64,000 nt of DNA, from the NCBI GenBank assembly GCA_018694115.1, contig JABHNB010000009.1:11116-75115 (forward strand). Reading direction: 5' to 3'. The stretch is from an archaeon. GTDB lineage: Archaea > Nanobdellota > Nanobdellia > Pacearchaeales > GW2011-AR1. Shown here piece by piece: positions 4,106 through 56,511 of the stretch (the stretch's first letter is position 1; the number at the start of each line of letters is the position of its first letter). The notes beneath the pieces are model-generated. The model saw nothing but the letters and a program-made list of their open reading frames with translations. It did not search any database and was not told where the DNA came from. The position numbers and the translations under genes are program-made.

Positions 4106-4197
4106 TCCCCGTATACACCTTTGTATGCAAAAAAAGGTTTACCTTTGGTAAGAGGAAATATGGAAAGCTTTAAAAAGAAAGTTTCTTACAATATTTT

Positions 4198-4461
4198 ATG
4201 GTAACTGATAAGCCCTCGAGAGAAGAAGATAATAAAGTTGTAATGTCTAAGATTTCTAGGGACGAATTTGCGAATTTGCAGAAGCTCTGCGAGATGGAAA
4301 AAAAAAGTGTTAATAAAAAGTTGAGAGAAATAATCCAGAAAGAAATAGCTGAAATTTTTTTTAGAGAGAAACCTCTAAGACTCAAGGGGGAAAGAAAGAA
4401 ATTTTTTATCCCATCTGAAAATAGGTTTATTGAAATGTTGGAGGTTGAGGATGATAACTAA
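4198..4461 (+). CDS. Small RHH-like protein, likely starting at the ATG at 4243, overlapping the start of the ATPase gene
   Basis: MSKISRDEFANLQKLCEMEKKSVNKKLREIIQKEI has a beta-strand plus two-helix pattern. Its stop overlaps the downstream gene start by about 30 nt. Confidence 0.3.
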   Translation: MVTDKPSREEDNKVVMSKISRDEFANLQKLCEMEKKSVNKKLREIIQKEIAEIFFREKPLRLKGERKKFFIPSENRFIEMLEVEDDN

Positions 4462-6598
4462 GATAAATCTTATTAGAAATTTGGGTAAGTTCGAAAATTG
4501 TACCCCTAATAATATTACGATCAACAACAATCTCTTAATTTATGGGAACAACACTCAGGGTAAAAGCACATTCACGTCTATATTAAAATCAATGAAGGAA
4601 AATAACCCTAATATTCTTTTAGGAAGGAGGTGTTTTTCTTCGGGAAGAAATCCTGAGATAAGAATTGAGGTAGATGGTAGCCCGATATCTTTTGAAAATA
4701 GACAGTGGACAAGTCATTTATCTAATATAGAAATATTTGATACAGATTTTATTGCGAAAAATATTTCAGATTTAGATAAAATAACGCAGCAGCAGCAAGT
4801 TAATATGAATTCTATAATTCTTGGAGAAGAGGGCAGAAGAATAGATAATGAAATAATCTCTTTAAGTTCACAAATAACCAATAACGGTACGCGTAAAAGC
4901 GGATTAACACATCAACTAATGGGACTTTGCAGTAAAAATTACAATGAACTGGTGGTGATAAATGAGATTCCAGAAGTGGATCATGAGATAGATAGGTTGA
5001 CGGGGAGCATAACCTTATTAGAAAAAGATGATAAAATCAAAACAATTATTGGAGGATTTAACAAATTTTCAGTTGATAACGCAGAGAAGGGTTTGTTAAC
5101 AAAAACAATCCAAGTAGATCTAGGAATTATAAGTTCACATAAGGAAAAATGCTGTACAGGCGGAATCTCTTGTGATAATTTTTTTAACCTGGGAACACAG
5201 TTGAGCACAAAGGGGTTCTGTGCTTTTTGCGGAAGTGAATTATCCGAAGAAGAAGAGCTTGTTGAAAATTATAAAAAATATTACTCTATGGAATATGAAA
5301 ACCTCATTAGCGAATTATCTGTATTGAAAAATAAAGTTAATATTTTTAATTTTGAGAAATGGCATGAGATTTGGAAATTTTTATCTGAAAATGGGATTGT
5401 AATATCTGAACCAGATATTAGAAAACTTGAAGAATTAAAAAGTAATATTATTCAAGAAATTAATGAAAAGTTAAGTAGCGTAAATGGCTCTAGGAATATT
5501 GATGCCTTTATTGGCGAAATTGCTCAAATTCAAGAAAAATTTGAAGAAGAGCTTGGGGCTATATCATCAGATACAACGCAACTGATGCGACTAAAGAGAG
5601 AGAGGTCTTTAAACCTAGAAAACAAAAAGATTTTTTCAGCCCAAGTGCAAGGAATTATTCAAAGTTATAAATCTATTGAGGAGGAAACAAGAGAATTCGA
5701 AAGAAGAAGGTCACAGCATCAACAAGAATTAACACAATATTCACAAGATATATTCGCGAAATATCAGGATGAAATAAATATAATTCTAGGTGAAATAAAT
5801 TCCGATTTCACATTGTCGATAGATTCGTCATATGCAACTGCTATTAGACGTGGCAACCAGGAGGTATTTAGTTTAGATTTTTCTGGAAACCAAGTATCAA
5901 TTAATTCAGAAGATCTTTCAAATCCATGTTTTGGAAATACTTTAAGCGAAAGTGACAAGAAATCCTTAGCATTTGCTTTTTTTGTTGCACAGCTACGCCA
6001 AGATACAGAATTACAGGAAAAGATAATAGTTCTAGATGATCCTATTTCTAGTTTTGACAAGGAAAGAAAAAATAAAACTGCAGAAATCCTTTTGACACTA
6101 AAGAATCAAGAAGAGGCATCTCCGAATCAGATAATAATATTGACACATGAACAATATTTTTTAATGGATATAAGGAGTAAGGCAAAAACGCTAGGGATAC
6201 AATTTCATGAATTAACCATAAAAAGAAATAGCATAAGTATATCTGATTTTTCTAAGGAATTTGAATCCCAGGTGTTAAAGGATTTAGAATGGCTGTCTGC
6301 TTTAAAAGACAATTATAATGGTGAGGATTTTTTTGTGCAAGCAAGAAAAATATTAGAGAATATTTTCAAAAGGAAATATTTTTCAAAAGTTAAAGCAATT
6401 TTAAGTGTAAATAACGTTGCGGGTGTCAGAACTTTTGTTCAAGAAATTTATGGAACTGGAACCGACGAATACATTAAAGGAATTAGTCTATGTAACGATC
6501 TAAATATAGAATCTCATGATAATCCCTCAAGGCAATTAACAAATGGGGACAAACAAACTATTTTAAATGACTTTTTTAATTTTTTGGAGATATTATAA
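4430..6598 (+). CDS. AAA_13-family ABC-type ATPase (PrrC/RloC anticodon-nuclease-like) embedded in the type I RM operon
   Basis: Walker A LLIYGNNTQGKSTF. Walker B/D-loop IIVLDDPISSFD followed by an H-loop-like ILTHEQ. Central coiled-coil region with a Cys cluster KCCTGGISCDNFF...FCAFCGSE. 722 aa. Position between hsdR and hsdS matches known prrC/rloC loci. Confidence 0.6.
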   Translation: MKCWRLRMITKINLIRNLGKFENCTPNNITINNNLLIYGNNTQGKSTFTSILKSMKENNPNILLGRRCFSSGRNPEIRIEVDGSPISFENRQWTSHLSNIEIFDTDFIAKNISDLDKITQQQQVNMNSIILGEEGRRIDNEIISLSSQITNNGTRKSGLTHQLMGLCSKNYNELVVINEIPEVDHEIDRLTGSITLLEKDDKIKTIIGGFNKFSVDNAEKGLLTKTIQVDLGIISSHKEKCCTGGISCDNFFNLGTQLSTKGFCAFCGSELSEEEELVENYKKYYSMEYENLISELSVLKNKVNIFNFEKWHEIWKFLSENGIVISEPDIRKLEELKSNIIQEINEKLSSVNGSRNIDAFIGEIAQIQEKFEEELGAISSDTTQLMRLKRERSLNLENKKIFSAQVQGIIQSYKSIEEETREFERRRSQHQQELTQYSQDIFAKYQDEINIILGEINSDFTLSIDSSYATAIRRGNQEVFSLDFSGNQVSINSEDLSNPCFGNTLSESDKKSLAFAFFVAQLRQDTELQEKIIVLDDPISSFDKERKNKTAEILLTLKNQEEASPNQIIILTHEQYFLMDIRSKAKTLGIQFHELTIKRNSISISDFSKEFESQVLKDLEWLSALKDNYNGEDFFVQARKILENIFKRKYFSKVKAILSVNNVAGVRTFVQEIYGTGTDEYIKGISLCNDLNIESHDNPSRQLTNGDKQTILNDFFNFLEIL

Positions 6599-7175
6599 CA
6601 TGAAACAAAAAAAAATTAAAACATTTGATGAGTTAAATTTTTTTCCCACTGGGAGCAATTGGAAGCACGTGCTTTTAGAAGTCTATAGACATTCGCCACA
6701 TAATTATGGGGAATCTCATAAGGTTGGATTTTATGATGATAAGCACCTTCTTGCAAAGAAGTTAAAGATCTCAGGATTTGAATTAGGGCTTGCAATTTCT
6801 TTTCTGAGAGATCATAAATTGATTAAAGATAATAATCCTGGGAAAGCTGGATTGAACTCGCCTCCGATTTGTCCAGAATGGAGTAATAGAATTCTTTTGA
6901 CAGATAGGGGTTTTGAGATTGCGACAAAGCTAGAAAATGAATTAAGTAATGAGAGAACGCAGAAAGTAGTAATGATATTTACTGCAATTATTGCATGGAC
7001 TGGATTTACGGCATTGCTGAATGAAATTATGCCAGATAAAATTTCTATTGTCTTTTGGATTTATGTTCCAGTGATAATACTTTTGTTATCTTCATTCTAT
7101 TTCAATACTTTAATTGACAAATTTAAAAGATTTATTTTCAAGAGACAGATTAATAGTGGTGGGTGCGCGATATGA
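6567..7175 (+). CDS. Hypothetical protein with C-terminal membrane anchor (two TM helices)
   Basis: Likely start at MKQKKIKTF (around 6600). Hydrophobic C-terminal helices IFTAIIAWTGFTALL and IVFWIYVPVIILLLSSFYF. Overlaps hsdS start. Confidence 0.4.
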   Translation: MTFLIFWRYYNMKQKKIKTFDELNFFPTGSNWKHVLLEVYRHSPHNYGESHKVGFYDDKHLLAKKLKISGFELGLAISFLRDHKLIKDNNPGKAGLNSPPICPEWSNRILLTDRGFEIATKLENELSNERTQKVVMIFTAIIAWTGFTALLNEIMPDKISIVFWIYVPVIILLLSSFYFNTLIDKFKRFIFKRQINSGGCAI

Positions 7176-8320
7176 AACAAAAACAGATTAACCAAAATTG
7201 GAAAGAGTTTGAATTGGGAGAAATAATTGAGTGTTTGGATAATCAAAGAATCCCCATCACGGGATCAGATAGAAAAAAGGGAGAAATTCCTTATTATGGT
7301 GCAAATGGGCAGCAAGATTCTGTTGCAGATTCTATTTTTAATGAGGAACTTTTGTTATTGGCTGAAGATGGTGGAAGTTGGGGATATAAGCAAAAATGCT
7401 CTTATATTATTAATGGAAAATCTTGGGTGAACAATCATGCCCATGTTTTACGAATGAAAAAAGACATGATAAATATTAATCTTCTTAGGTATTGGTTTAA
7501 TTTAACTGATTTGAATAAATATATTTCTGGAACAACAAGGGGAAAATTAAATCAAGGGGTAATGAAAAAAATAAAAATTCCTCTTCCAGTTCTCTCGGAT
7601 GGAACTTCTGATTTAGAGAAGCAAAAGCAGATTGTTGCGATGTTGGAAAAGGCGGAGGGGTTGAAGGATAAGCGGAAGGGGTTGGATGAGTTGTTTGATG
7701 AATATTTGAAGAGTGTTTTTTATGAGATGTTTGGGGATCCATTCAATAATCCTAAGGGATTTAATACTAAAAGACTAGTTAAGGATGTTGTCCTAATAAA
7801 CGGCAGGGCATTCAAAACGTCTGAGTGGAGCAATGAAGGTATTAAGATTATACGGATCCAAAATCTGAATAAGCCTTCAGCAGGGTATAATCGGTACAAT
7901 GGAGAGGTTGATGAGAAGAATATAGTTGAAAAAGGAGATATGCTTTTGTCTTGGTCCGGAACACCAGGAACTTCTTTTGGAGTGTTTATTTGGGAGAAAG
8001 AGAAGGCTGCACTCAACCAGCATATTTTCAAGGTTGAATTGCCTTCAGATCTTGAGAAGACATTCTTTCAATATTTTATTAATTCAAAATTACTTGAGCT
8101 TATTTCTAAGTCTCATGGTGGAGTTGGCCTACAACATATAACAAAGTCTGAGTTAAATAATGTGGATGTTTATTATCCTCCAATTACTCTTCAGGAAAAA
8201 TTTGCTTCTATTGTTGAGCAGGTTGAGAAAATTAAAGATAAATTAAAAGATGAGAAGAAGGATGCTGATGAGTTGTTTAATGCTTTGATGCAGAAGGCTT
8301 TTTCGGGGGAGTTGGCATGA
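7163..8320 (+). CDS. hsdS: Type I restriction-modification specificity subunit (HsdS)
   Basis: Two target-recognition-domain halves, each followed by a conserved helical spacer (LEKQKQIVAMLEKAEGLKDKRKGLDELFDEYL and LQEKFASIVEQVEKIKDKLKDEKKDADELFNALMQKAFSGEL). Confidence 0.8.
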   Translation: MRDMKQKQINQNWKEFELGEIIECLDNQRIPITGSDRKKGEIPYYGANGQQDSVADSIFNEELLLLAEDGGSWGYKQKCSYIINGKSWVNNHAHVLRMKKDMININLLRYWFNLTDLNKYISGTTRGKLNQGVMKKIKIPLPVLSDGTSDLEKQKQIVAMLEKAEGLKDKRKGLDELFDEYLKSVFYEMFGDPFNNPKGFNTKRLVKDVVLINGRAFKTSEWSNEGIKIIRIQNLNKPSAGYNRYNGEVDEKNIVEKGDMLLSWSGTPGTSFGVFIWEKEKAALNQHIFKVELPSDLEKTFFQYFINSKLLELISKSHGGVGLQHITKSELNNVDVYYPPITLQEKFASIVEQVEKIKDKLKDEKKDADELFNALMQKAFSGELA

Positions 8321-8721
8321 ACAAGAAAGGGTATACACAATTTATTGTTATTGGATTTATAGTTCTTGCAATCTGGGGGATTGTCTCCTCATTGGGATGG
8401 GTAGGTTCAAATAATAAACTTGATACAGAGCAGGAAAAAACTGATTATTGGAAAGGATTGAATTCCCAGTGCCAGCAAGAATTGGGCATAGCCTGTGAAC
8501 AAATTGAGGATCAGACAAAAACTATATCAGATCTTCAAGGAAAAATTGGAATTCTTGAAAATCAGAACAATTCAGATAAGTATGCTGTTTTATGGATAGG
8601 TCCTGAAATAATAATCAACGAAACATGGGCTATTATAATTAATATTGGATTAAGCATTTCTCTAATATCAGTATCCTTTACTTTAAAATTTGTTTTTGGA
8701 GGAGACAAAAAAAGAAAATGA
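8317..8721 (+). CDS. Membrane protein with N- and C-terminal TM helices and a central coiled coil
   Basis: MNKKG start. TM segments at both ends. Overlaps the hsdS stop and the next gene start (ATGA overlaps). Confidence 0.45.
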   Translation: MNKKGYTQFIVIGFIVLAIWGIVSSLGWVGSNNKLDTEQEKTDYWKGLNSQCQQELGIACEQIEDQTKTISDLQGKIGILENQNNSDKYAVLWIGPEIIINETWAIIINIGLSISLISVSFTLKFVFGGDKKRK

Positions 8722-9332
8722 ATAAAAAAGGTGAAGCTAGTCCTGAGGAAATAATTAAAGCAATTTTTGCAATTATAATAATACTTCCTTTATTCGGAGC
8801 ATTATTCGGAGCGCTAAATGATATCTCTCATCAAAGTGAAAATACCGAGATACAAAAAATAACTAATGAGAAAAACTTAGAGATTGAGAATATTACGAAT
8901 GAGAAAGAGGCGATCACGTCAGAGAGAGATGATTATAAAAGTAGATATGAACAAATTCAAGGAGACTACGATTACCTAATTAATACTAGTGTTACGAAAA
9001 ATGACGTCAATGAAATACACGGAGAAATGAATTCTATTAAAAATTCCTTGGATAGTCTGCATAATAAAACATCAGTGGTTAATCAAAATATAAATCATTT
9101 TTATGACATAAGGCAGACATACATATATTACACAATAAGCGTTGTAATCAACTTTGCAATTCCCATAGTTTTTGTTTTGGATTGGACTTTATTCAACTTT
9201 TCGATTACAGTAAAAATTACTAAAAAAATGAATGGATTTCTTGGAAAATTAAAAACTAAACTAAAGAAAATATTTTTCAAGGAAAAAACTCCTGAAGAGC
9301 AAACAAATAAAAGAGAGGGTGAACAGGAGTAA
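8718..9332 (+). CDS. Membrane protein, paralogue of the preceding gene (N- and C-terminal TM helices, coiled coil)
   Basis: Same MNKKG start and same architecture as 8317..8721. Ends 2 nt before the hsdM start. Confidence 0.45.
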   Translation: MNKKGEASPEEIIKAIFAIIIILPLFGALFGALNDISHQSENTEIQKITNEKNLEIENITNEKEAITSERDDYKSRYEQIQGDYDYLINTSVTKNDVNEIHGEMNSIKNSLDSLHNKTSVVNQNINHFYDIRQTYIYYTISVVINFAIPIVFVLDWTLFNFSITVKITKKMNGFLGKLKTKLKKIFFKEKTPEEQTNKREGEQE

Positions 9333-9334
9333 CT

Positions 9335-10789
9335 ATGGTAGGACTTGAACAAGAATTAAAATCGAAAGTGAGGGGGCTTTGGGATAAGTTTTGGAGTGGT
9401 GGAATTTCTAATCCGCTTCAGGCGATTGAGCAGATTTCTTATTTAATGTATATGAAAAAGCTTGAGGATAAAGATGTTTTGGAAGAACAGAATGCTATTC
9501 TAAAGGGTGAGAAATTTAAGTCTATTTTCGAAAAACATAAAGATTGTCGATGGAGTGAGTGGTCGCAGTATTCTTCGGATAAAATTTTAGATCATGTTCG
9601 AGATGTTGTATTTAAGTTTATGAGGGAATTAGGAGATGAAGATACACTTTACTCAGAATACATGAAGGATGCTACTTTTTCTTTGCCTACTGCTTCGCTA
9701 TTGATTGAGTCTGTGAATATAATTAATGATATGCACATCAAGGAGCAGAATCAAGATACACAAGGAGATATTTATGAGTATTTGCTTTCGGAGTTATCTA
9801 CGGCTGGGAAGAATGGGCAGTTTAGGACGCCGAGACATATTATTCAGATGATGACTGAGCTTGCTAATCCGGAGTTTGGCGATAGAATTATGGATCCAGC
9901 TTGTGGGACTGCGGGGTTTTTGGTTAGTGCGTATGAGCATATTTTGAAAGTAAACAAGAAAGGTGGGGTTAGTACGTTTACACCAAGTAAGAAAAAGATT
10001 TTGGATGAAGATACTTTTTATGGATATGATATTGATAGAACGATGGTTCGAATTGCATTGATGAATTTGATGATGCATGGGATAACTAATCCAAAAATTT
10101 CTCGGACAGATACTTTGTCCAAGAGATATAATGAGAACGGGACTTATGATATAATCTTAGCGAATCCTCCATTCAAGGGGTCGATTGATGTTAGTGAGCA
10201 AAGTGACGAGTTTACTGTTAAGACTAAGAAGACTGAATTGTTGTTTTTGGAATTAATGCATAACTCTTTGTCTAATGGTGGAAGGTGTGCTGTGATTATT
10301 CCTGATGGCGTTTTGTTTGGTAATTCTAATGCACATCAAGGAATTAGAAAGATGTTACTAGAAGACTGTCGACTTGATGCGGTTATCTCTATGCCCTCAG
10401 GAATCTTTAAACCATATGCTGGTGTTTCTACTGCAGTTTTATATTTTACAAAGGGTGAGCCAACAAAGGAAGTTTGGTTTTATGATATGCAGGCTGATGG
10501 ATATAGTTTGGATGATAAAAGGAATAAGATTGAGGCGAATGATATTCCGGATATTTTGGAGAGTTTTAAGAATCGAAAGAAAGAAGATAATACTGACAGG
10601 AAGGCTAAGCATTTTATTGTTCCGGTGGAAGAGATTAAGGAGAATAATTTTGATTTGAGTTTGTCTAAGTACAAGGAGCATGTATACGCGGAAGAAGTTT
10701 ATCGGGAGCCTGGAGTTATTTTAGAAGAGATTGGGAAGACTCATGTTGAATTGAGTAAGGATATTGAAGATTTGAAGAAGTTGGTTTGA
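9335..10789 (+). CDS. hsdM: Type I restriction-modification N6-adenine DNA methyltransferase (HsdM)
   Basis: N6-MTase motif IV ILANPPF. SAM-binding motif I DPACGTAGFL. N-terminal HsdM_N-like region. 484 aa. Confidence 0.9.
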   Translation: MVGLEQELKSKVRGLWDKFWSGGISNPLQAIEQISYLMYMKKLEDKDVLEEQNAILKGEKFKSIFEKHKDCRWSEWSQYSSDKILDHVRDVVFKFMRELGDEDTLYSEYMKDATFSLPTASLLIESVNIINDMHIKEQNQDTQGDIYEYLLSELSTAGKNGQFRTPRHIIQMMTELANPEFGDRIMDPACGTAGFLVSAYEHILKVNKKGGVSTFTPSKKKILDEDTFYGYDIDRTMVRIALMNLMMHGITNPKISRTDTLSKRYNENGTYDIILANPPFKGSIDVSEQSDEFTVKTKKTELLFLELMHNSLSNGGRCAVIIPDGVLFGNSNAHQGIRKMLLEDCRLDAVISMPSGIFKPYAGVSTAVLYFTKGEPTKEVWFYDMQADGYSLDDKRNKIEANDIPDILESFKNRKKEDNTDRKAKHFIVPVEEIKENNFDLSLSKYKEHVYAEEVYREPGVILEEIGKTHVELSKDIEDLKKLV

Positions 10790-11944
10790 TTAATTTAAAC
10801 TGACAACCAGCTCCCCCTTCTTAACAAACTCCAGAATCTCTTTCATTTGACCTTCTAACATTCCAACTCTCTCAAGCAAAACTTCTTTCTCATTCTCAGA
10901 TTTTAGTAGCCTCTGTTCAATCTCAGTCTTCGTCACATCAACCAACATATCTTCTTCGCTAATGGTGTCCACCATCCCGAGGAATTCTGAATAGTAATGA
11001 ATTTTGTCTGATTCCTTCCATCCGAATCTATACTTCAATGAACTTTCTGATTTATACCTTGGAAGCCAATAGCAACATGAACAGTGCCTGAAGTGGTACA
11101 TTGTTAGCTCGGAATATTTCTTTCCAGCTAGACTCATTTTGTCCCCTAGGACTTTCTTAGCGAGCCTCTGGAGATACTTATTGACAGATGTGGGCTTGAT
11201 ATCAAATACTCTGTCGTCTGGTCCGATACCCATTATCTTAATGTATTCTTTTATCATGCTAGAACAAAACATTAATTTTATTCGTCTTCCAAAAGTCTTA
11301 CTTATCTCATCTCTAACTTCGACTTCCTTGAAATCTTTATGAAAATCCGAGGTCTTAATGTTGATTAGTTCGCTTGGACTTCTGACCCCTGAGTCGTAGA
11401 GAAACATTATGATCATTCGATAATTATATTTTGCATTATCACAAAGCTGCTTGATTTGCTCTTCGGTTAGATAAACCCACTTCGGTTTTTCTCTGGAAGT
11501 ATCAAGATCTTCGGCTATATCTATTATCTTCGAGCCTTTTTTCTTTTCAACTTTAATGTGCCAGTGCCAAAAAGATTTGAACACTTTGACATAATCTGCA
11601 ACGGATTTATATATTCCTCCTTGTTTTTTTTGAATCTTGCCATTTCGCATATCATTGAAAAAAACAAAGATTTGTTCTTCTGATATGACTCTTATATCCT
11701 TGATATTAAATCTTTCTTCAAATTCTTTGACGATAAAAACCATTCTTTGTCGAATGTTATTTAGTCTGGCATAGCTTCTGGCTCCTTTGATGCTACTTTT
11801 AGAGATATTGAGTCCTCTTTCCATGTCTAATATGTATTTTAGGATTATGTCAGAGCTAGCCTTGCTAATATCCGGGATTCTTCCCTTTATTTTTTCTATC
11901 CAGTTGAAATATCTTTGTTTGTTTTTTTGTGGATCTACTTTCAT
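10790..11944 (-). CDS. Tyrosine recombinase / integrase (phage-integrase family)
   Basis: C-terminal box II YHFRHCSCCYWL (HxxRH) and a downstream Tyr-containing IHYYSE. N-terminal SAM-like domain. Sits 84 bp from the 3' end of tRNA-Glu. Confidence 0.65.
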   Translation of the reverse strand: MKVDPQKNKQRYFNWIEKIKGRIPDISKASSDIILKYILDMERGLNISKSSIKGARSYARLNNIRQRMVFIVKEFEERFNIKDIRVISEEQIFVFFNDMRNGKIQKKQGGIYKSVADYVKVFKSFWHWHIKVEKKKGSKIIDIAEDLDTSREKPKWVYLTEEQIKQLCDNAKYNYRMIIMFLYDSGVRSPSELINIKTSDFHKDFKEVEVRDEISKTFGRRIKLMFCSSMIKEYIKIMGIGPDDRVFDIKPTSVNKYLQRLAKKVLGDKMSLAGKKYSELTMYHFRHCSCCYWLPRYKSESSLKYRFGWKESDKIHYYSEFLGMVDTISEEDMLVDVTKTEIEQRLLKSENEKEVLLERVGMLEGQMKEILEFVKKGELVVSLN

Positions 11945-12028
11945 GATTTATCAAGGCTGACCATCTTAAAAGACGGTTTGTATAGTTCTTGTAAAATCGC
12001 ACCCCAGAAATTAGACAGAATATGCGGA

Positions 12029-12101
12029 CGCTCCCGCCGGGATTTGAACCCGGGTCACTGCCGTGAAAGGGCAGCATCCTTGGCCACTAGACTACGAGAG
12101 C
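12029..12101 (-). tRNA. tRNA-Glu (anticodon UUC)
   Basis: Manual fold of GCUCUCG-UA-GUCU...CUGCC-CUUUCAC-GGCAG-UGAC-CCGGG-UUCAAAU-CCCGG-CGGGAGC-G. Acceptor stem 7 bp, T-loop UUCAAAU, anticodon loop CUUUCAC. Confidence 0.8.
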
Positions 12102-12281
12102 ACTACTCGCGTGGTCTTCATGAAACGGTAAACCGTTACTTTAGACTACGAGAGCATGTCTTTATTCACCAATTTTCACTTTTAAAGCTTACGCATCATC
12201 AAATAATCTCCCGGCCGTCGTTACTGATACCTCCCTAAAATGAATCAAAACACATAAAAAGCAACAAATCCCTTAAATCCT

Positions 12282-13933: not shown

Positions 13934-14051
13934 TGAGCCTACGGAGATTTGAACTCCGGACCTCTGGCTCTCTTCGAGTGAAGTGAGCTAACGTTCTAGC
14001 GAACATCCATCTTATAAGACCAGCGCTCTAACCTGGCTGAGCTATAGGCTC
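13934..14051 (-). tRNA. Intron-containing tRNA; manual fold gives anticodon UAU (tRNA-Ile UAU) with an intron of about 43 nt after position 37
   Basis: Acceptor GAGCCUA/UAGGCUC. D-stem GCUC/GAGC. Anticodon stem CUGGU/GCCAG with loop CUUAUAA interrupted by the insert. T-arm CGGAG-UUCAAAU-CUCCG. Discriminator A. Confidence 0.55.
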
Positions 14052-49939: not shown

Positions 49940-50175
49940 TGACTTTCGGTCAAATCTACGAAATAAAAAACACAAAGTATGTCCTACAACATATATGATA
50001 CAATATCTATATTGCAATATACTATATTGCACCACATACATTGGGACAAATAAAAAACCAAACTTTGCCCTAAGGGCACCAAATCATCCGAATTTTAAGA
50101 CCGAATTTTAAGAAATAAAAAATGCAAATAAAAAACCAAACCCAAAATCTACGAAATAAAAAACACATAATCAAA
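49940..50175. repeat. AT-rich repeat zone with repeated aaatctacgaaataaaaaacaca units at the compositional boundary
   Basis: Two copies of a ~23-nt unit (about 49952 and 50138) plus further aaataaaaaacaca copies. Seen directly. Confidence 0.45.
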
Positions 50176-50276
50176 TAAAAAACACAAATCCAAAGGCGAG
50201 GAGCCCAAACAGTCAGTAAACTGAAAGTTGGGCCCCTGCCTTGGATACTACGTCTTGACCACCCAGTTAATTGGAC

Positions 50277-50738
50277 TTACTTGGGCGGATACAGAATCAT
50301 AAGAATAACCAGGAAGAAGCAGACGGATATCACAACAAGCGAAGGAACGCTCGGAATGTAATATCCTTCGAGTCTTTCAATCTCCTGGAAACTGAAGACG
50401 CCACGCCCTTTTTCTCCACAATCCACATGGTACCTGTAACCTTTTTCTGCGCCACCAAAATCCCAATCCCGAATAACGCCTATCTTCCCTTCGGCAGCGG
50501 TATCCCGTTGGACGATCTTGATTTGATCATTGATGTGATACGCCGGGCCCCACCACCAGCAGAGGAAGTAAACTCCTGCAAGGAGGAGAATCAGGACCGC
50601 CCACCCCCGGGGAGATATCTCATTCAACTTTTTGGCAACCGCCCTTAGGGGACGGTAAACGACCAGCAAGGCAATGAACCCCCCAATCGTGGCCAACACC
50701 TGCCAATGATCACCGGCTATTTTCAAAAGTTCATCCAT
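50277..50738 (-). CDS. Three-TM membrane protein, tandem paralogue 1 of 4
   Basis: D(H/N)WQVLAT N-terminal TM, W-rich TM2 followed by GPAYHIND, a soluble ~65 aa domain (GxIGxIRDW...F.EI.RL.G), and a C-terminal TM. Confidence 0.55.
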   Translation of the reverse strand: MDELLKIAGDHWQVLATIGGFIALLVVYRPLRAVAKKLNEISPRGWAVLILLLAGVYFLCWWWGPAYHINDQIKIVQRDTAAEGKIGVIRDWDFGGAEKGYRYHVDCGEKGRGVFSFQEIERLEGYYIPSVPSLVVISVCFFLVILMILYPPK

Positions 50739-50836
50739 ACGTCACTTCCTTTCATTCTGTCAATTCTCTTTCTTCTAGCTCATGCACACACTGCACGAGT
50801 AATGCAAGTAAAAAATACTCCCCCTGTCAAGGGCAA

Positions 50837-51322
50837 TTAATCCAACTTATCCCGGACGATCACCAGGAAGCTTCCCAGAATAAATATGATGAAGGATGGA
50901 ATTCCGGGGATATAGGGGCCACCCAAACTCCTTATCTCCGCGAACAGAAACTTATGCTTTGCCCCCCCACACTCCACAAAGTAGGAGTAGTGGGCCATTT
51001 CAAGTTTCCAATCTCTGACCACTCCAATTTTCCCGTTGAGCTCGCTTTGCAGTCGCGTAATCTCAACTTCATCATTGGCGCCATAGACTGGGCCCAACCA
51101 CCAGCTGAAACAATAAACTATCACTGCAAGGAAAACTATCCCGAAGATCGTCCACATCAGCCACTTTCCGGCTACGCGCCCCCGATCAATAGCTTTTCTT
51201 ACCAAACGATAGCCCACAACCAGAACAGCGCAGGTAGCCAACGTGGCCAGCACTTGCCAATTGTCACAGGCCATTTTCCAAAGATCATTCATAACTTCAT
51301 TTCCTTTCATTTCGATTATCAC
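50837..51322 (-). CDS. Three-TM membrane protein, tandem paralogue 2 of 4
   Basis: Same architecture: NWQVLATLA, GPVYGAND, GKIGVVRDW. Confidence 0.55.
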   Translation of the reverse strand: MIIEMKGNEVMNDLWKMACDNWQVLATLATCAVLVVGYRLVRKAIDRGRVAGKWLMWTIFGIVFLAVIVYCFSWWLGPVYGANDEVEITRLQSELNGKIGVVRDWKLEMAHYSYFVECGGAKHKFLFAEIRSLGGPYIPGIPSFIIFILGSFLVIVRDKLD

Positions 51323-51335
51323 AACCTCCCAAGGG

Positions 51336-51400
51336 AGAGCTAGTCATCCGGCCCACTGCCAAACAATCTAGCTCCCCCTTACAATCGACCTCTTAATCGA
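51336..51400. repeat. Conserved ~55-nt intergenic element (copy 1) with an 11-bp inverted repeat gggagagctag...ctagctccccc
   Basis: Near-identical to the copy at 51946-52010. Each lies upstream of a paralogue gene. Confidence 0.45.
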
Positions 51401-51417
51401 GAGAACGACAACTACGC

Positions 51418-51912
51418 CTAGTCACTCGCGCCTTCTTTCAGCTTCAGGGAATCCATATTCGCGGCGAGAGCTATCAGGCTTCCGATTATCATCAGGATAA
51501 GCGGAAAAACACTCGGGATATAGCAGGGGCCTTCAAACCTTTTGAGTTCCTGGAAGTGGAATTTTCCCAGTTCTTTCGCCCCATAATCCACATGATAGAT
51601 GAATCCCCCTGGACGAGGACTTTCCCAATCACGGATTATTCCGACCTTTCCTTCCTCGGGGGTATCTCGTTGGACGATCGTGACCTTTTCGTTGATACCA
51701 TACACCGGTCCAAGGCCCCATGCGAGGAAGTAAATCACTGCCGAGACAATTACCATCCATACGAGGGTCTTCAACACCCAACCCGTAGTGAGATTCACAT
51801 ACCTGGAAGCAACCTTCTTTCCCAAGCGATAAATCACGAAGAGGGAGGCGAAGACAGCCAATGTGGCAAATACCTGCCAGTTGTCGCTCACCATGTTAAC
51901 AAACTCTTTCAT
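51418..51912 (-). CDS. Three-TM membrane protein, tandem paralogue 3 of 4
   Basis: Same architecture: NWQVFATLA, GPVYGINE, GKVGIIRDW. Confidence 0.55.
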   Translation of the reverse strand: MKEFVNMVSDNWQVFATLAVFASLFVIYRLGKKVASRYVNLTTGWVLKTLVWMVIVSAVIYFLAWGLGPVYGINEKVTIVQRDTPEEGKVGIIRDWESPRPGGFIYHVDYGAKELGKFHFQELKRFEGPCYIPSVFPLILMIIGSLIALAANMDSLKLKEGASD

Positions 51913-51945
51913 ATCTCGTTCCTTTCGTTCAATTCATCAAAACCC

Positions 51946-52010
51946 CCAAAAGGGAGAGCTAGTCATCAAGCCCAATGCCCAACAATCTAGCCCTCCCAAG
52001 GGTAACGCCA
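51946..52010. repeat. Conserved ~55-nt intergenic element (copy 2), gggagagctag...ctagccctccc
   Basis: See copy 1. A second, different conserved element (gcacacactgcacgagtaatgcaagta-like) lies upstream of paralogues 1 and 4. Confidence 0.45.
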
Positions 52011-52013
52011 TCG

Positions 52014-52502
52014 TCAATATCCGAAGTTCGAAGAGGATTTATTCAGGACGGGTAATCGCAAGTAGATCACCACACAAACCCCGACGGCCATTAAAACAAG
52101 GATTGGAATGCCCGGGATATGGGGCCCGTTTAACCTCTTCAGGTGCTCAAAACGGAGGCCGTAGGGTTCATCTCCCTTACAATAAACAGAATACACATAG
52201 CCATTGCCCGGAGCGAGACAATTCCAGGATCTGATTATCCCAGTTTCACCATTTACGTCGCTTCGGGGATAAACTATCTCGACTTCGTCGTTGATATGAT
52301 ACGCCGGACCCCACCACCAGGTAAAGAAATAGATCCCGGCTACCACAACAACTGCCAACATGACCGTCTTCAGGAACCATCCACGTGGCAATCCCCGGTA
52401 CTTGGAAACAACCCTCCTTACCACACGATAGCCCATCAGCAAGGCGACACATCCTGCCAGGGTGGCAAACACTTGCCAATGTCCAACAATAAACTCTTTC
52501 AT
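52014..52502 (-). CDS. Three-TM membrane protein, tandem paralogue 4 of 4
   Basis: Same architecture: HWQVFATLA, WWWGPAYHINDE, GETGIIRSW. Confidence 0.55.
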   Translation of the reverse strand: MKEFIVGHWQVFATLAGCVALLMGYRVVRRVVSKYRGLPRGWFLKTVMLAVVVVAGIYFFTWWWGPAYHINDEVEIVYPRSDVNGETGIIRSWNCLAPGNGYVYSVYCKGDEPYGLRFEHLKRLNGPHIPGIPILVLMAVGVCVVIYLRLPVLNKSSSNFGY

Positions 52503-52593
52503 AACTCGTTCCTTTCATTATCTATCTTCATCCCATCTTGCCCGCACACTATGCACGAATAAAACAAGTAGGAAGTAAGTCTTCAGGCGGCGG

Positions 52594-53883
52594 TCAGGAA
52601 GGAGAGGCCAGTTTTATCAGCTTGACCTTTATTTCATCCTTGCTATCCCACCCATATTCGGCCGCTTCCGCAAAGAGATCCAGCCACCATTCGAAGTCGC
52701 CGTCACCGAGTTCCATCAACTTTCCAAGGAAGATTTCTCCGAGATTGTCAGATTCTCCATCTCCGAGCATCTTGTCGTAGGTCTCTTTCCAGAGATTGAA
52801 GTCGCTACACTCCAACTCTCTGAATATTTCGATTATCCTATCCTCAGAAGGCGAGGAACCCTCTGCGTTTGTGAAGAACTCCCACCATTTGTCCGGGCCC
52901 CAATTCCTGGGTCGTTCTTCTATCTGGGTGAGGATCAGTCTTTGCCTGTCATGATCTCCATCAAACATCCCGAAGATAGCCTCCCAGTTCTCAAAGGATA
53001 CCTCTTCTCTCCCTTCGAGTCTTTTAATGAGGGCATCACACATATTTTCCCAGCCATTATCGTTTGCTTCTTCCAGGAATCCTTTCAATGTCTCGAAATC
53101 TTCCTGGGGGAGTTCGGCCACATTTTCTTCGAGAGCATTGTCCGTAGTTTCATCATCGGCCACCCTATAGGCCTCCATGAGTTGCCCCATGGTGGTCACT
53201 CTCTTGACCAGTTCTTCACCGATCCTTTCCTCGTGCTGATTGTAGCAGTCCCCACGAAGGGTGCACAACTGTTCAAGGGAGGGATTGGAAGATAAGAGCA
53301 GATCGAGGAAAAGATCTGCGACCATCTTCTTGATGCCCATCTCTTCCTTATCGGCCTCTCCAGATTCTGTATAGATGGTTTTTGCCTGATCGAAAGTTTG
53401 GATGGATCCGCCTACATTTTCGAGAGCGGTCTGTCTGAGGGGAGATCCAGCTTCAGCCACTTCAAGGACAGACTCCCAATCTTCCGGAGTCCTTGCCCTT
53501 CGTGAGATCTGCTCCAGGACTGAACTTTTGAGCGAGGCGTCTCCAGACCTTATGGCCGCATGGCAAAGCTTGATCCAGTTTCCGAATTCCGATCCCACAC
53601 GTTGGAGCATCTGCGTTCCAGCGTGCCGGTGAAGCTCTGACAAATCTTCATTGCCTATCGAGAGTTCGAACAGTCTGAGGTTATTCTCGAATGTTGAAGC
53701 CAATCTGGCGGCTTCACCAAGGGCGCGTTTCTTGAGGGGCTCTTCGGCCTCTCCACTGTAGTACACCTCGATCCACCGATCGAAATTCAGATCGGGGGGA
53801 GGCGCGTTATCTTGCACATTCCAGATTGCAAGAGCTTTCATTACTCCGACCTGGGCGGCCAGAGATTCAAATGACATTTCCAT
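52594..53883 (-). CDS. Acidic all-alpha hypothetical protein (429 aa)
   Basis: Glu/Asp/Trp-rich with internal repeats and no catalytic motif. Confidence 0.45.
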   Translation of the reverse strand: MEMSFESLAAQVGVMKALAIWNVQDNAPPPDLNFDRWIEVYYSGEAEEPLKKRALGEAARLASTFENNLRLFELSIGNEDLSELHRHAGTQMLQRVGSEFGNWIKLCHAAIRSGDASLKSSVLEQISRRARTPEDWESVLEVAEAGSPLRQTALENVGGSIQTFDQAKTIYTESGEADKEEMGIKKMVADLFLDLLLSSNPSLEQLCTLRGDCYNQHEERIGEELVKRVTTMGQLMEAYRVADDETTDNALEENVAELPQEDFETLKGFLEEANDNGWENMCDALIKRLEGREEVSFENWEAIFGMFDGDHDRQRLILTQIEERPRNWGPDKWWEFFTNAEGSSPSEDRIIEIFRELECSDFNLWKETYDKMLGDGESDNLGEIFLGKLMELGDGDFEWWLDLFAEAAEYGWDSKDEIKVKLIKLASPS

Positions 53884-53950
53884 AAGGATTACCTTCTTTC
53901 GTATTATTCTACTTTTTCGATCTATCCCAACACGATGTCAGGACTCTGTT

Positions 53951-54466
53951 TTATCCGTCACTCCGACCTTCAATTTTCTCCAGCTTTTGGATGACTGCAC
54001 GCCGGACTTCGCTTCCCTGGGGGGTTCCGAAATAGACATAGGTGGCCTCCCGTTCCCCTTCAGCTTGTTCGAAGTCTTGCCAGCACTGCGGGATCCATTT
54101 TTGGCGGATAGCCCTCCTTATATCTGAATCTTCCGGAGTGCAAAGATACAGGATCTTCAGTCCCAGTGCACTGTTGGCAGCAAGGCACCTGGACAAATGG
54201 ATCCTTTCAATGCGATTCACAAACTCCGGACTGACCTTCCCGCCGAGGATAACACGAAGGTAGAGCTCGAAAAGCTGTTCCTTGTTCTTCGCATTTTCCA
54301 AATGGCCGATAAAGGTCAGATCATCCATCTCTTGGAGATCCTGAACAAGGCGAATCTGGGAATTCATTAAAGCTTCCCTCGAAAAGCTTTCTTCCTTCAC
54401 CGAACACCCCGGAGACGTCAGGGATCCACAACAGACAACAACCAACAACCAACAAGGCAGTTTCAT
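53951..54466 (-). CDS. Lipoprotein-like secreted protein
   Basis: Probable start at MKLPCWLLVVVCCGSLTSPGCS (signal peptide with a Cys-containing lipobox-like end). The track ORF extends to 54535. Confidence 0.4.
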   Translation of the reverse strand: MKLPCWLLVVVCCGSLTSPGCSVKEESFSREALMNSQIRLVQDLQEMDDLTFIGHLENAKNKEQLFELYLRVILGGKVSPEFVNRIERIHLSRCLAANSALGLKILYLCTPEDSDIRRAIRQKWIPQCWQDFEQAEGEREATYVYFGTPQGSEVRRAVIQKLEKIEGRSDG

Positions 54467-54563
54467 AACAATTCTCCCTTCAGAGAACAAGGAACAGCGC
54501 CGGGCACCCCCCAATAAAACATTACCCGGCCCCATTCAGGTTAGTGAAAAATCAGGCCATCAA

Positions 54564-55154
54564 TTATTCGGCATCGGCAGTCGGAATGTCGCTGAGATCG
54601 ATCGGAGATCCGTCCGCTCCGCGGTAGGTCCTGAGGAGGATGTCCTCTTCGATGTGGCGTTCGTCGCCATTCGGAAGTTTGATTCGGATTACTCCTTCCT
54701 TATCGCGGATAGCGAGAACCACGTCTTTTTCGTCACGCTTCACGATCCCAGTATAGTCATCGACCATGCGACCAGCCGGCGAAAGATGATCATCCACGAA
54801 GTCAGTGTCGGCAGTGTACTGGTCACCGCACCCCTGCTCGCCTGCTGCTATAAGGATATCGTCCAGGTTATCTACCGTGGGCGGAGTCTCCATCATATCC
54901 AGAAGTGCCTCGGCGATTTCGCCAGGAACTTCGTTGAGGATAACAACGCCTTTTTCACCGTCTGCGCCCTGCCAGGTTCCGTCGCCGTCACCGTCAGTTT
55001 CGTTGAGAACGAGAATCACCGGACGGTCGTTATTCTGGCCATATCCGGAGACTTCCATATCCTGTTCGAATGCCACAACGACATCACTCGCGGGAACCTT
55101 GAAGATAAGCTTGCGGGTTGCGGAAACGATTTTAAGACCTTTATCAAAATTCAC
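54564..55154 (-). CDS. Acidic hypothetical protein (196 aa)
   Basis: Asp/Gly-rich with no motif. Confidence 0.4.
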   Translation of the reverse strand: MNFDKGLKIVSATRKLIFKVPASDVVVAFEQDMEVSGYGQNNDRPVILVLNETDGDGDGTWQGADGEKGVVILNEVPGEIAEALLDMMETPPTVDNLDDILIAAGEQGCGDQYTADTDFVDDHLSPAGRMVDDYTGIVKRDEKDVVLAIRDKEGVIRIKLPNGDERHIEEDILLRTYRGADGSPIDLSDIPTADAE

Positions 55155-55407
55155 AATATTCTCCTTTCTCCGTTTTGGGGAGAAAAAAAGTAAGGCCCTA
55201 ACTCTTGTCAGAACCTAAAGATTCCAGCAACTTGCCAGGATCCTTTTAATGTAATGCCATGTTACGTCCCAAAAACTTATCTCCTAATCCTGAGGAGTGT
55301 TTCGAATGTGCTTCACAAAACTCCAGATCGCAATCACTCCAGAAAAAGTGGCCCCCGAAGCGATTAAAATCCCTGCAATCTGCTGTGTCATTTCTACTCC
55401 TTTCTGG

Positions 55408-56511
55408 TCAGCTCTCCTTTGAGCCAAACCATTTACGATAGATTTCATCGTATTTACCGCTTTTCCGAATCTTCAACAAGGCGCGGTTAATCTCTTCTCG
55501 AAGATTGCTTCCTTCAGGTACGGCGAAGCCGTAGTATTGTTTGTCGAAAATCGGACCGACAACCCCCACTTCATCCGGGTGTTGCTGGGCGAAGAAAAGG
55601 ACACTTGGGGAATCGAAGACAACCGCATCAACCTTCTCCTTAAGCAGGAGATCATACGATTCTTGGATAGAAGGTGTAGCAACCACCTTAGCTCCAAGGC
55701 CCTTAAGTGTCGTAACACTTGTAGTGCCTTGTGCAGTGGCGACCGTCTTTCCTCTGAGATCTCCCGGATGGTTGATCACCGATTCAATGGCCTCGATTTC
55801 CCGGACCGTAAAAGCTGTGATGATCGGAGCAGAGACAAGGCCGACAATAACGCAGCCGTTGAGGAAGAGGGGGATGGTTAAGAGCCTTCCCCAAGTCTTC
55901 TTGGGATAGATATCTCCAAAACCTATGGTGGTCTTAATTGCCCAGACACACCAGCATGCATCGAAGAATCCTTTCCAATCGTCTGCGATTACGTCTGCAC
56001 CCTGTTCAGCCCGCCACAACAAGAATCCCCAAACGAAGAATCCAATGAAGAGGATTCCCAAAAGCCCTGCCATCTCCCAGTTGAACAGTCTTCGGAAAAT
56101 AGACGAGAGGATCGAGGCCTTTTTCTTCTGACCTTTGACAACGATCCTCAATCCGGAATTCATATAGTGGTGTGAGAAGTCGAAATTCTCTTCCCGATCC
56201 GCGGTAATAAAGATCCCGGACACTGCCACATCAACCTTCCCTGCCTTAACATCCTGCAGAAGTTGGTCAAATTCCGAACCCTTGTACTGCTTGTACTCAA
56301 TCTCCCAGTTGAGTTCTCCAGCAATCGCCTCAATTATTTCGATGTCTGATCCCGAAAGGCCAGACTTCGTTGAGGAACTTTCCATCACGCATGGGCGGAA
56401 GATTCCCGCACCAATAGTGATTTTCTTTTTTTCCTGCGCTTGCACCGGGGAAACGACTGCCGCCAGAACAAGTACACCAATAACAATCAGAAAGGCGGTT
56501 TTTTGCTTCAC
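55408..56511 (-). CDS. GluR0-type ligand-gated potassium channel: periplasmic amino-acid-binding (SBP_bac_3) domain split by a K+-channel pore module
   Basis: Signal peptide. SBP lobe 1 (KVDVAVSGIFITADREENFDFSHHY). TM. P-loop with K+ selectivity filter TTIGFGD. TM. SBP lobe 2 (TVATAQGTTS...VDAVVFDSP...YGFAVPEGS). Confidence 0.75.
   Translation of the reverse strand: MKQKTAFLIVIGVLVLAAVVSPVQAQEKKKITIGAGIFRPCVMESSSTKSGLSGSDIEIIEAIAGELNWEIEYKQYKGSEFDQLLQDVKAGKVDVAVSGIFITADREENFDFSHHYMNSGLRIVVKGQKKKASILSSIFRRLFNWEMAGLLGILFIGFFVWGFLLWRAEQGADVIADDWKGFFDACWCVWAIKTTIGFGDIYPKKTWGRLLTIPLFLNGCVIVGLVSAPIITAFTVREIEAIESVINHPGDLRGKTVATAQGTTSVTTLKGLGAKVVATPSIQESYDLLLKEKVDAVVFDSPSVLFFAQQHPDEVGVVGPIFDKQYYGFAVPEGSNLREEINRALLKIRKSGKYDEIYRKWFGSKES

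Follow-up and report, generated by a model that had tools for sequence, protein, structure and literature searches.

Channels of the GluR0 type are the accepted prokaryotic model for the fusion of a K+ pore with a binding protein that gave rise to ionotropic glutamate receptors (iGluRs). Here, we report the analysis of a gene for a protein of this architecture in a 64,000-nucleotide stretch of DNA, hereafter the window (positions 11,116 to 75,115 of contig JABHNB010000009.1, assembly GCA_018694115.1), from an archaeon assigned to the Pacearchaeales. The product of the gene is 100% identical to NCBI MBT3397839.1, which, like further entries for this protein, is deposited under the label 'archaeon', and the gene was found on 23 contigs. 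An earlier note on this DNA, made from the letters alone, had described a periplasmic binding domain of the SBP_bac_3 family interrupted by a module of two transmembrane helices and a P-loop, with the K+ filter TTIGFGD, and had placed the gene in a GC-rich block. The coordinates of the gene, of the segments of its product and of the other features of the window are collected in Table 1.

Table 1. Features of the channel gene and of the rest of the window. Positions are those of the window; L095 is a sequence that continues the block past the window.
Feature	Position	Strand	Evidence or remark
Complete coding sequence, GluR0-type channel subunit	55408..56511	-	GTG start, 367 amino acids and stop codon (open reading frame list)
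Shine-Dalgarno (SD) motif AAGGAG	56518..56523	-	7-12 nt 5' of the GTG start
Sec-type signal peptide, residues 1-25	56437..56511	-	KQK, hydrophobic core, putative VQA/QE cleavage point; Kyte-Doolittle
S1 half of ligand-binding domain, residues 28-130	56122..56430	-	Lig_chan-Glu_bd; 2pyy and 1ggg alignments
Pre-M1 amphipathic helix and M1, residues 134-169	56005..56112	-	AlphaFold, hydropathy, KcsA TM1 alignment
Pore helix and selectivity filter, residues 179-200	55912..55977	-	AlphaFold helix 179-195, translation, KcsA alignment
Filter TTIGFGD, T194-D200	55912..55932	-	Translation
M2 (inner helix, gate region), residues 206-237	55801..55896	-	AlphaFold helix 206-237, hydropathy, KcsA TM2 alignment
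S2 half of ligand-binding domain, residues 240-367	55411..55794	-	2pyy and GlnBP alignments
S1 residues Phe38, Gly99, Phe101, Arg106	Phe101 codon 56209..56211; Arg106 codon 56194..56196	-
S2 residues Gly262-Thr263-Thr264, Phe299-Asp300	Asp300 codon 55612..55614	-
GC-rich, compositionally foreign block (part in window)	50200..64000	.	Step in GC and GC3, SD-led genes
Four consecutive membrane proteins, ~153-164 amino acids	50277..52502	-	36-43% identical to one another
Paralogue pair, 494 and 453 amino acids	62464..63948 and L095 8513..9874	- (62464..63948)	38% identity
Major vault protein (MVP) homologue, 918 amino acids	59191..61947	-	Stop ~2.7 kb upstream of channel start
20-bp exact direct repeat TCTACGAAATAAAAAACACA	49955..49974 and 50148..50167	+	193 bp apart
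Type I restriction-modification R subunit	1361..4105
AAA_13 ATPase	4430..6598
HsdM-like methyltransferase	9335..10789
XerA-like tyrosine recombinase	10790..11944		Abuts tRNA-Glu 12026..12102

A pore module inside a ligand-binding domain

Three Pfam-A models match the protein above their curated cut-offs, with E-values far beyond chance: SBP_bac_3 (1.5e-29, residues 47-363), Ion_trans_2 (7e-11, residues 168-234) and Lig_chan-Glu_bd (1.7e-8, residues 39-127). The stretching of the SBP_bac_3 match over residues 47-363, with Ion_trans_2 inside it, indicates a domain split by an insertion. Lig_chan itself (PF00060), another model that the earlier note had proposed for the search, gave no match to the protein in Pfam-A. 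The same partition emerges from NCBIfam, where GlnH and related binding-protein models align with two separated stretches, far below their curated cut-offs, and K+-channel models match between the two.

Kyte-Doolittle hydropathy delineates three hydrophobic segments, namely a signal-like one at residues 1-27 with a peak of 2.65, M1 at 145-169 and M2 at 207-239. No hydrophobic segment lies past residue 239, so there is no third transmembrane helix after S2, and the C-terminus (...YRKWFGSKES) follows S2 directly. At the other end, S1 begins directly past the signal peptide, and the protein has no amino-terminal domain. The signal peptide, which is probably cleaved between VQA and QE, is of the Sec type, and the ligand-binding domain would accordingly be extracellular. 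An AlphaFold2 model built from a 27-sequence alignment (mean pLDDT 91.3, pTM 0.75) has helices at residues 134-142 (pre-M1), 145-168 (M1), 179-195 (pore helix) and 206-237 (M2), with alpha/beta lobes on both sides. Compared by Foldseek with the Protein Data Bank (PDB), this model matches best chains comprising the ligand-binding and transmembrane domains of AMPA receptors (7oca_A, 4.6e-24), over ~380 aligned columns at 20-23% identity. The split Pfam match and the modelled helices thus bear out the interrupted domain of the earlier note, and the order of segments, signal peptide, S1, M1, P-loop, M2 and S2 with no further transmembrane segment, is the topology that had been anticipated.

Searched alone, the 119-residue pore module ranks KcsA first (6.6e-11) and aligns with it without gaps from M1 to M2, pairing AEQGA with AERGA, TTIGFGD with TTVGYGD, and YPKKTWGR with YPVTLWGR. 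Around the filter, WAIKTTIGFGD of the channel is aligned with SVETATTVGYGD of KcsA, and T194-T-I-G-F-G-D200 corresponds column for column to KcsA T74-T-V-G-Y-G-D80, so the filter is present as proposed. The two proteins differ at KcsA Val76, Tyr78 and Glu71, the counterparts of which are Ile, Phe and Ala191. The K+-selective K2P channels include some with T-I-G-F-G filters, and EAG and Kir6 channels some with G-F-G; from its TTIGFGD motif, the present channel is predicted to be selective for K+. This motif occurs in 12 of 142 family representatives and is common to the whole sub-clade of the query. Unlike KcsA, which is gated by pH, the channel would be gated by its ligand-binding domain. In the GluR0 family, the domain that receives the pore module is extracellular, and the module is therefore turned over in the membrane compared with KcsA.

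Several relatives with the same architecture (P0040-P0042, P0045-P0047 and P0049-P0060) carry non-K+ pore loops, such as NGGFEER, TGGCENK and IIGSDGG, and resemble the 'Group 2' of Ger et al. 2010.

Relatives, known systems and the ligand pocket

Relatives were sought by a word-indexed search (E<=0.001) and by an exhaustive phmmer search of 1.84 billion representatives of 50%-identity clusters. The former returned 73 matches, 58 of which are at least 300 amino acids long. Those scanned individually have SBP_bac_3 and Lig_chan-Glu_bd in common and usually possess a pore domain too, and the 27 that were aligned run end to end with the query, all stopping directly after S2. The phmmer search found 556 representatives at E<=1e-30, the closest being 51% identical to the query; among the best 150 of the 556, nearly all are 330-420 amino acids long and align as one piece from about residue 10 to residue 365 of the query. 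The GluR0 type, called uncommon in the earlier note, is indeed rare in relative terms, yet with 556 representatives it is well populated, and the family is one already known.

The best solved relative by sequence is the ligand-binding core of Nostoc punctiforme GluR0 (2pyy, 1.1e-35), which aligns over both lobes: query residues 38-129 and 237-366 match its two halves, the second domain at 8.4e-24. The two proteins share REeNFDFS, GKxVAT, DAVVFDxP and YxxxYxKWF, and differ in the pocket, where Nostoc AISITAER, in which the fifth residue ahead of the Arg is Ser, stands against GIFITADR of the query, with Phe101. A match at 3.8e-16 was also obtained to Slr1257 of Synechocystis PCC 6803 (1ii5, 1iit), the GluR0 that is reportedly the founding prokaryotic glutamate-gated K+ channel, said to have been described by Chen et al. 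in 1999, with core structures 1ii5, 1iit and 1iiw. Only the S2 half forms the best stretch of this match, which points to a distant relationship. Slr1257 and the query have an equal domain order (signal peptide, S1, M1, P-loop with K+ signature, M2, S2), and both lack an amino-terminal domain and the last transmembrane helix. They differ in the filter, which in Synechocystis is of the canonical TVGYG type, and in the host, a cyanobacterium in one case and an archaeon in the other. Together, the matches to 2pyy and Slr1257 uphold the GluR0 architecture that had been assigned to the protein.

Two further comparisons delimit the assignment. Escherichia coli GlnBP (GlnH) has the fold and both lobes of the query (2.3e-27) but is a soluble transporter component without a channel insert. 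The eukaryotic AMPA-type iGluRs GluA1-4 provide the best whole-chain structural match, covering the ligand-binding and transmembrane domains (E ~1e-23), and many GluA1-4 chains match query residues 85-365 by sequence. These receptors possess an amino-terminal domain, M4, a C-terminal tail and a Q/R-site loop, all of which are absent from the query, which has a K+ filter instead; the query would work like eukaryotic iGluRs yet is no member of them. It displays the features of the GluR0 type (TCDB 1.A.10, Group 1): a two-lobed class-3 domain the S1 and S2 halves of which flank a channel module, two transmembrane helices around a re-entrant pore helix with the K+ signature T-x-V/I-G-Y/F-G, no amino-terminal domain, no helix after S2, and an Arg and an acid in the pocket.

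The pocket was compared by alignment with Nostoc GluR0 (2pyy) and E. coli GlnBP (1ggg/1wdn). In S1, Gly99, Phe101 and Arg106 pair with G68, T70 and R75 of GlnBP; in S2, Ala260, Thr263, Thr264, Phe299 and Asp300 pair with K115, T118, G119, H156 and D157. R75 of GlnBP and R485 of GluA2 bind the alpha-carboxylate of the agonist, D157 (GlnBP) and E705 (GluA2) together with the hydroxyl of T70 and T480 bind the alpha-amino group, and K115 and H156 of GlnBP read the glutamine side chain. Among the 142 family representatives, the Arg106 column holds Arg in 141 and the Asp300 column Asp in all 142. From these alignments, Arg106 and Asp300 are predicted to be placed to bind an alpha-carboxylate and an alpha-amino group and, with Thr263 and Thr264, to accommodate an alpha-amino-acid-like ligand.

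The conspicuous departure is at position 101, which is Thr in 89 and Ser in 48 of the representatives (137/142, 96%) and Phe in the query only; positions 56194..56220 of the reverse strand translate to SGIFITADR. The Thr or Ser that typically stands five residues before the Arg (T480 in GluA2, T70 in GlnBP) is therefore missing here. It is a typical, not a defining, feature, and Phe101 is no ground for excluding the protein from the family. Given the replacement of a near-universal Thr/Ser, the ligand should not be taken to be glutamate. Furthermore, Ala260 and Phe299 stand where GlnBP has its side-chain readers Lys and His, and the agonist may differ from glutamate and be a more hydrophobic compound. 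We read Phe101 as suggestive of a changed agonist specificity and not of a loss of function.

A separate sub-family (P0012, P0014, P0019, P0020, P0022 and P0025-P0027) keeps the filter TTVGYGD and has W, G, F or A in place of the pocket Arg. In these proteins, of which SCMPITHEW is an example, the Thr/Ser position is taken by Pro and the Gly of the G-T-T motif by Phe. Presumably, the ligands that gate these channels are not alpha-amino acids.

A GC-rich block on an archaeal contig

The channel gene lies, as the earlier note had it, in a GC-rich block. GC content is 0.36-0.41 up to ~50 kb/50.2 kb and 0.45-0.53 from there on, and GC content at third codon positions (GC3) is 0.25-0.39 in 19 core genes versus 0.52-0.61 in all 14 block genes, with the value for the channel gene (0.54) typical of the block. 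Strong AAGGAG or GAAAGGA motifs are found upstream of nearly all block genes, as opposed to the core genes shown, which lack an SD motif and carry a box, TTTAAA or TTTATA, at a distance of ~25-35 nt upstream. The block runs at least 15 kb past the window (L095 1..9950 and L099 1..5265) without its end being reached, for a total of at least 29 kb, and the genes in the part covered run in one direction with a single exception, the first gene called in L095. We consider the block to be foreign DNA acquired as a unit.

The remainder of the sequence identifies the host. A 118-nt tRNA at 13934..14051 on the reverse strand matches the full Rfam model and was overlooked by ARAGORN, which fits an intron-containing archaeal tRNA. 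The low-GC part encodes aIF-2 (above the equivalog cut-off), an archaeal-type tyrosyl-tRNA synthetase (TyrRS) and a YchF-related GTPase, and the closest named relatives of the glutamyl-tRNA synthetase (GluRS), at 63-69% identity, are labelled Candidatus Pacearchaeota, Nanoarchaeota or 'archaeon'. The intron-containing tRNA, aIF-2, TyrRS and the relatives of GluRS together indicate that the host is a marine DPANN archaeon.

The affinities of the channel are different. In the searches of this analysis, all relatives with an organism name are bacterial, apart from the query protein itself: they come from Victivallales (51% identity), Gammaproteobacteria (46%), Desulfobacteraceae (45%) and Leptospirales (43%), and further from Desulfosarcinaceae, Anabaena, Nostoc, Ruegeria, Shimia, Planctomycetes and Fuerstiella. 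The taxonomy of the nearest relatives was taken from loci in the Genome Taxonomy Database (GTDB); the scan of its representatives, based on 9 close sequences, was run with the motif TTIGFGDxY only and is thus blind to relatives with other filters. In a neighbour-joining tree, a Victivallales clade is the sister group of the query, within the TTIGFGD clade, and the neighbours at a Victivallales locus, judged by eye from their translations, are typically bacterial (BioD-like, NagA-like and an FHA-GAF-histidine kinase). Because the query is nested among bacterial relatives, these data argue for a transfer from bacteria to an archaeon and not for an archaeal origin of the family. In an earlier systematic survey, GluR0-type channels were seen in bacteria only, and glutamate-receptor channels of neither Group 1, with a K+ filter, nor Group 2 were found in archaea (Ger et al. 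2010, PMC2950845).

Within the block, only the channel and the MVP homologue are recognizable: 20 open reading frames (ORFs) have no significant Pfam match, and ten orphan frames (ORFans) of the block were searched against PHROG with no match. The MVP homologue was recognized by MVP_shoulder (9.1e-25) and Vault_3 (3e-5) in Pfam, and its PDB matches are MVP chains only (7pkz_A, 2.9e-12), in which the aligned parts are the last repeat, shoulder and cap helix. MVP homologues of bacteria and phages have already been described. In archaea, none was reported in a 2019 preprint (10.1101/872010). The idea of a defence system was rejected, with no PADLOC match for the channel or for nine neighbours. 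The block contains tandem paralogue families (Table 1), some pairs having common upstream sequences, and further paralogue pairs are present in L095 and L099. One 324-residue ORFan (L095 4323..5297, forward strand) ends in a motif resembling PEP-CTERM, scoring 19.7 bits against a cut-off of 20.7 (E 9e-4); in bacteria, PEP-CTERM serves as a sorting signal.

The GC step was inspected for an attachment site or a tRNA, and only the 20-bp direct repeat (Table 1) was found. It sits in an A-rich spacer at the step, ~0.03 such matches being expected by chance, and no further copy is present in the window or 21 kb of L095.

Interpretation, alternatives and other features of the window

Taken as a whole, it is probable that the gene encodes a subunit of a GluR0-type ligand-gated K+ channel, carried in a foreign block of at least 29 kb within the genome of a DPANN host and derived from a bacterial-type donor. 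Its mode of action can be sketched by analogy with Synechocystis GluR0, KcsA and iGluR structures. Behind the signal peptide, a two-lobed domain of the periplasmic-binding-protein type is interrupted by a KcsA-like module of M1, pore helix, filter and M2. Four subunits would make an inverted K+ pore, into which the filter reaches from the cytoplasmic side, with both lobes of each binding domain outside the cell. Closing of the clamshell on a small ligand would pull on the S1-M1 and M2-S2 linkers and open the gate at the M2 bundle; K+ would then run down its electrochemical gradient, and the membrane potential would shift.

Several points weigh against this interpretation. The SD-type start of the channel gene is unlike those of the core genes of the host. 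All recovered copies of the gene are essentially identical, so selection on it within the archaeal lineage is not measurable, and the best relative is only 51-54% identical, which bears on the donor. Phe101 takes away a canonical ligand contact, making gating by an amino acid less certain than in a typical member of the family, and the query has Ser55 where 88% of the relatives keep Phe. K+ selectivity, tetramerisation and gating are, moreover, extrapolated from Synechocystis GluR0 and KcsA.

Part of this evidence could be accommodated if the gene were not archaeal at all, mis-assembly or mis-binning having attached a block from a bacterium, a virus or a plasmid to the archaeal core. The sharp step in GC and GC3 at ~50.2 kb, the SD starts of block genes next to SD-less core genes with TATA boxes, and the bacterial affinity of the sole two recognizable block genes, the channel and the MVP homologue, would all be expected under such a scenario, as would the PEP-CTERM-like motif further along the block, albeit just under its cut-off, and the failure of the GTDB species-representative scan to recover the locus. 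We nevertheless judge it quite unlikely. Six contigs cross from the block into the pyruvate phosphate dikinase gene at 99.9-100% identity to the window at the junction, no contig has an alternative flank, and the names of the six (NODE_, k141_, Logan, an HAWL17 scaffold and an NCBI metagenome-assembled genome) indicate different samples and assemblers; a JGI contig with the block is 384 kb long. With an identical junction in independent assemblies, the adjacency of block and core is very probably real. A viral origin, in turn, is hard to reconcile with the IMG/VR viral contigs, among which there is no full-length relative of the channel, no exact match to a 61-mer from its gene and no relative of the MVP homologue, and with a phage collection that gave only partial domain matches to the channel and no full-length one; the ten ORFans lacking PHROG matches point the same way. 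Acquisition of the channel gene with its block from a bacterial-type donor is the most likely history.

Alternatives that concern the protein itself fare unequally. An ordinary amino-acid-binding protein of an ATP-binding cassette (ABC) transporter, in which TTIGFGD arose by chance, would account for the strongest NCBIfam matches, GlnH and its kin, far below cut-offs as these all are, and for the label 'transporter substrate-binding domain-containing protein' that the sources attach to the product. The probability of this is negligible: between the lobes lies an insert of ~110 residues with two transmembrane helices and a pore helix, the insert alone matches KcsA without gaps, and the whole chain superposes on the AMPA-receptor structures. 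The fold of the GlnH/ArtJ/HisJ type is thus broken by a channel module, and no ABC permease or ATPase gene was found among the neighbours. The ordinary binding protein, which the earlier note had named as the outcome that would overturn its reading, is ruled out by the KcsA-aligned pore insert and the whole-chain AMPA-receptor match. That the gene is a non-functional or decaying remnant of the transfer, or is silent in the archaeon, is very unlikely, despite the rare substitutions at two conserved positions (Phe101 and Ser55) and translation signals foreign to the host. The ORF is intact and the AlphaFold model confident; the filter, Arg106, Asp300, Gly-Thr-Thr and YPxxxWGR are all preserved; and, of the 37 columns with a conservation of at least 85%, only one departs from consensus (Ser55 for Phe), compared to a family median of three, a count on which decay was rejected.

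More weight has to be given to the possibility that the architecture is right and that the ligand is not an amino acid or is hydrophobic, or that the pore conducts cations non-selectively. Phe101 in place of the Thr/Ser that binds the alpha-amino group, and Ala260 and Phe299 in place of the side-chain readers of GlnBP, are in line with a changed ligand, and relatives vary freely in both respects, the Arg being lost in the SCMPITHEW proteins and the filter replaced by NGGFEER or TGGCENK in others. Set against this are the intact clamp for alpha-amino acids formed by Arg106 and Asp300, the residue-for-residue alignment of the filter and its flanks with KcsA, and the general occurrence of T-I-G-F-G filters in K+-selective K2P channels. 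We regard this as possible, though clearly less likely than not, and as a live refinement of the GluR0-type interpretation.

What is new here is the DPANN-archaeal host, the GC-rich foreign block of at least 29 kb, with translation signals still of the bacterial type, and the Phe101 in the agonist pocket. The locus offers a clean, intact and reproducibly assembled GluR0-type example in an archaeal genome. Since the channel is nested among bacterial sequences and lies in a foreign block, it documents an inter-domain transfer and not an archaeal origin of iGluRs, and the picture of iGluR ancestry is not changed by it. At 367 amino acids, with a naturally altered agonist pocket, the channel is suited to studies of binding and gating. 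DPANN archaea are generally regarded as episymbiotic. It is conceivable, if rather unlikely, that the archaeon uses the channel acquired from bacteria to sense something other than glutamate in the Phe101 pocket, perhaps a metabolite that is hydrophobic or comes from the host, and to turn it into a K+ or voltage signal where host and symbiont meet. Were this true, it would be the first ligand-gated channel of the iGluR type at work in an archaeal membrane, with a new class of agonist.

Arguably, the greater puzzle is not the channel but the block, in which SD-led ORFans accompany a vault-protein homologue within a DPANN genome. Elsewhere in the window, the stretch 1361..12102 is of lower GC content (0.33-0.36) and, with its restriction-modification genes, ATPase and recombinase next to a tRNA gene (Table 1), resembles a defence island that has been inserted at this tRNA.

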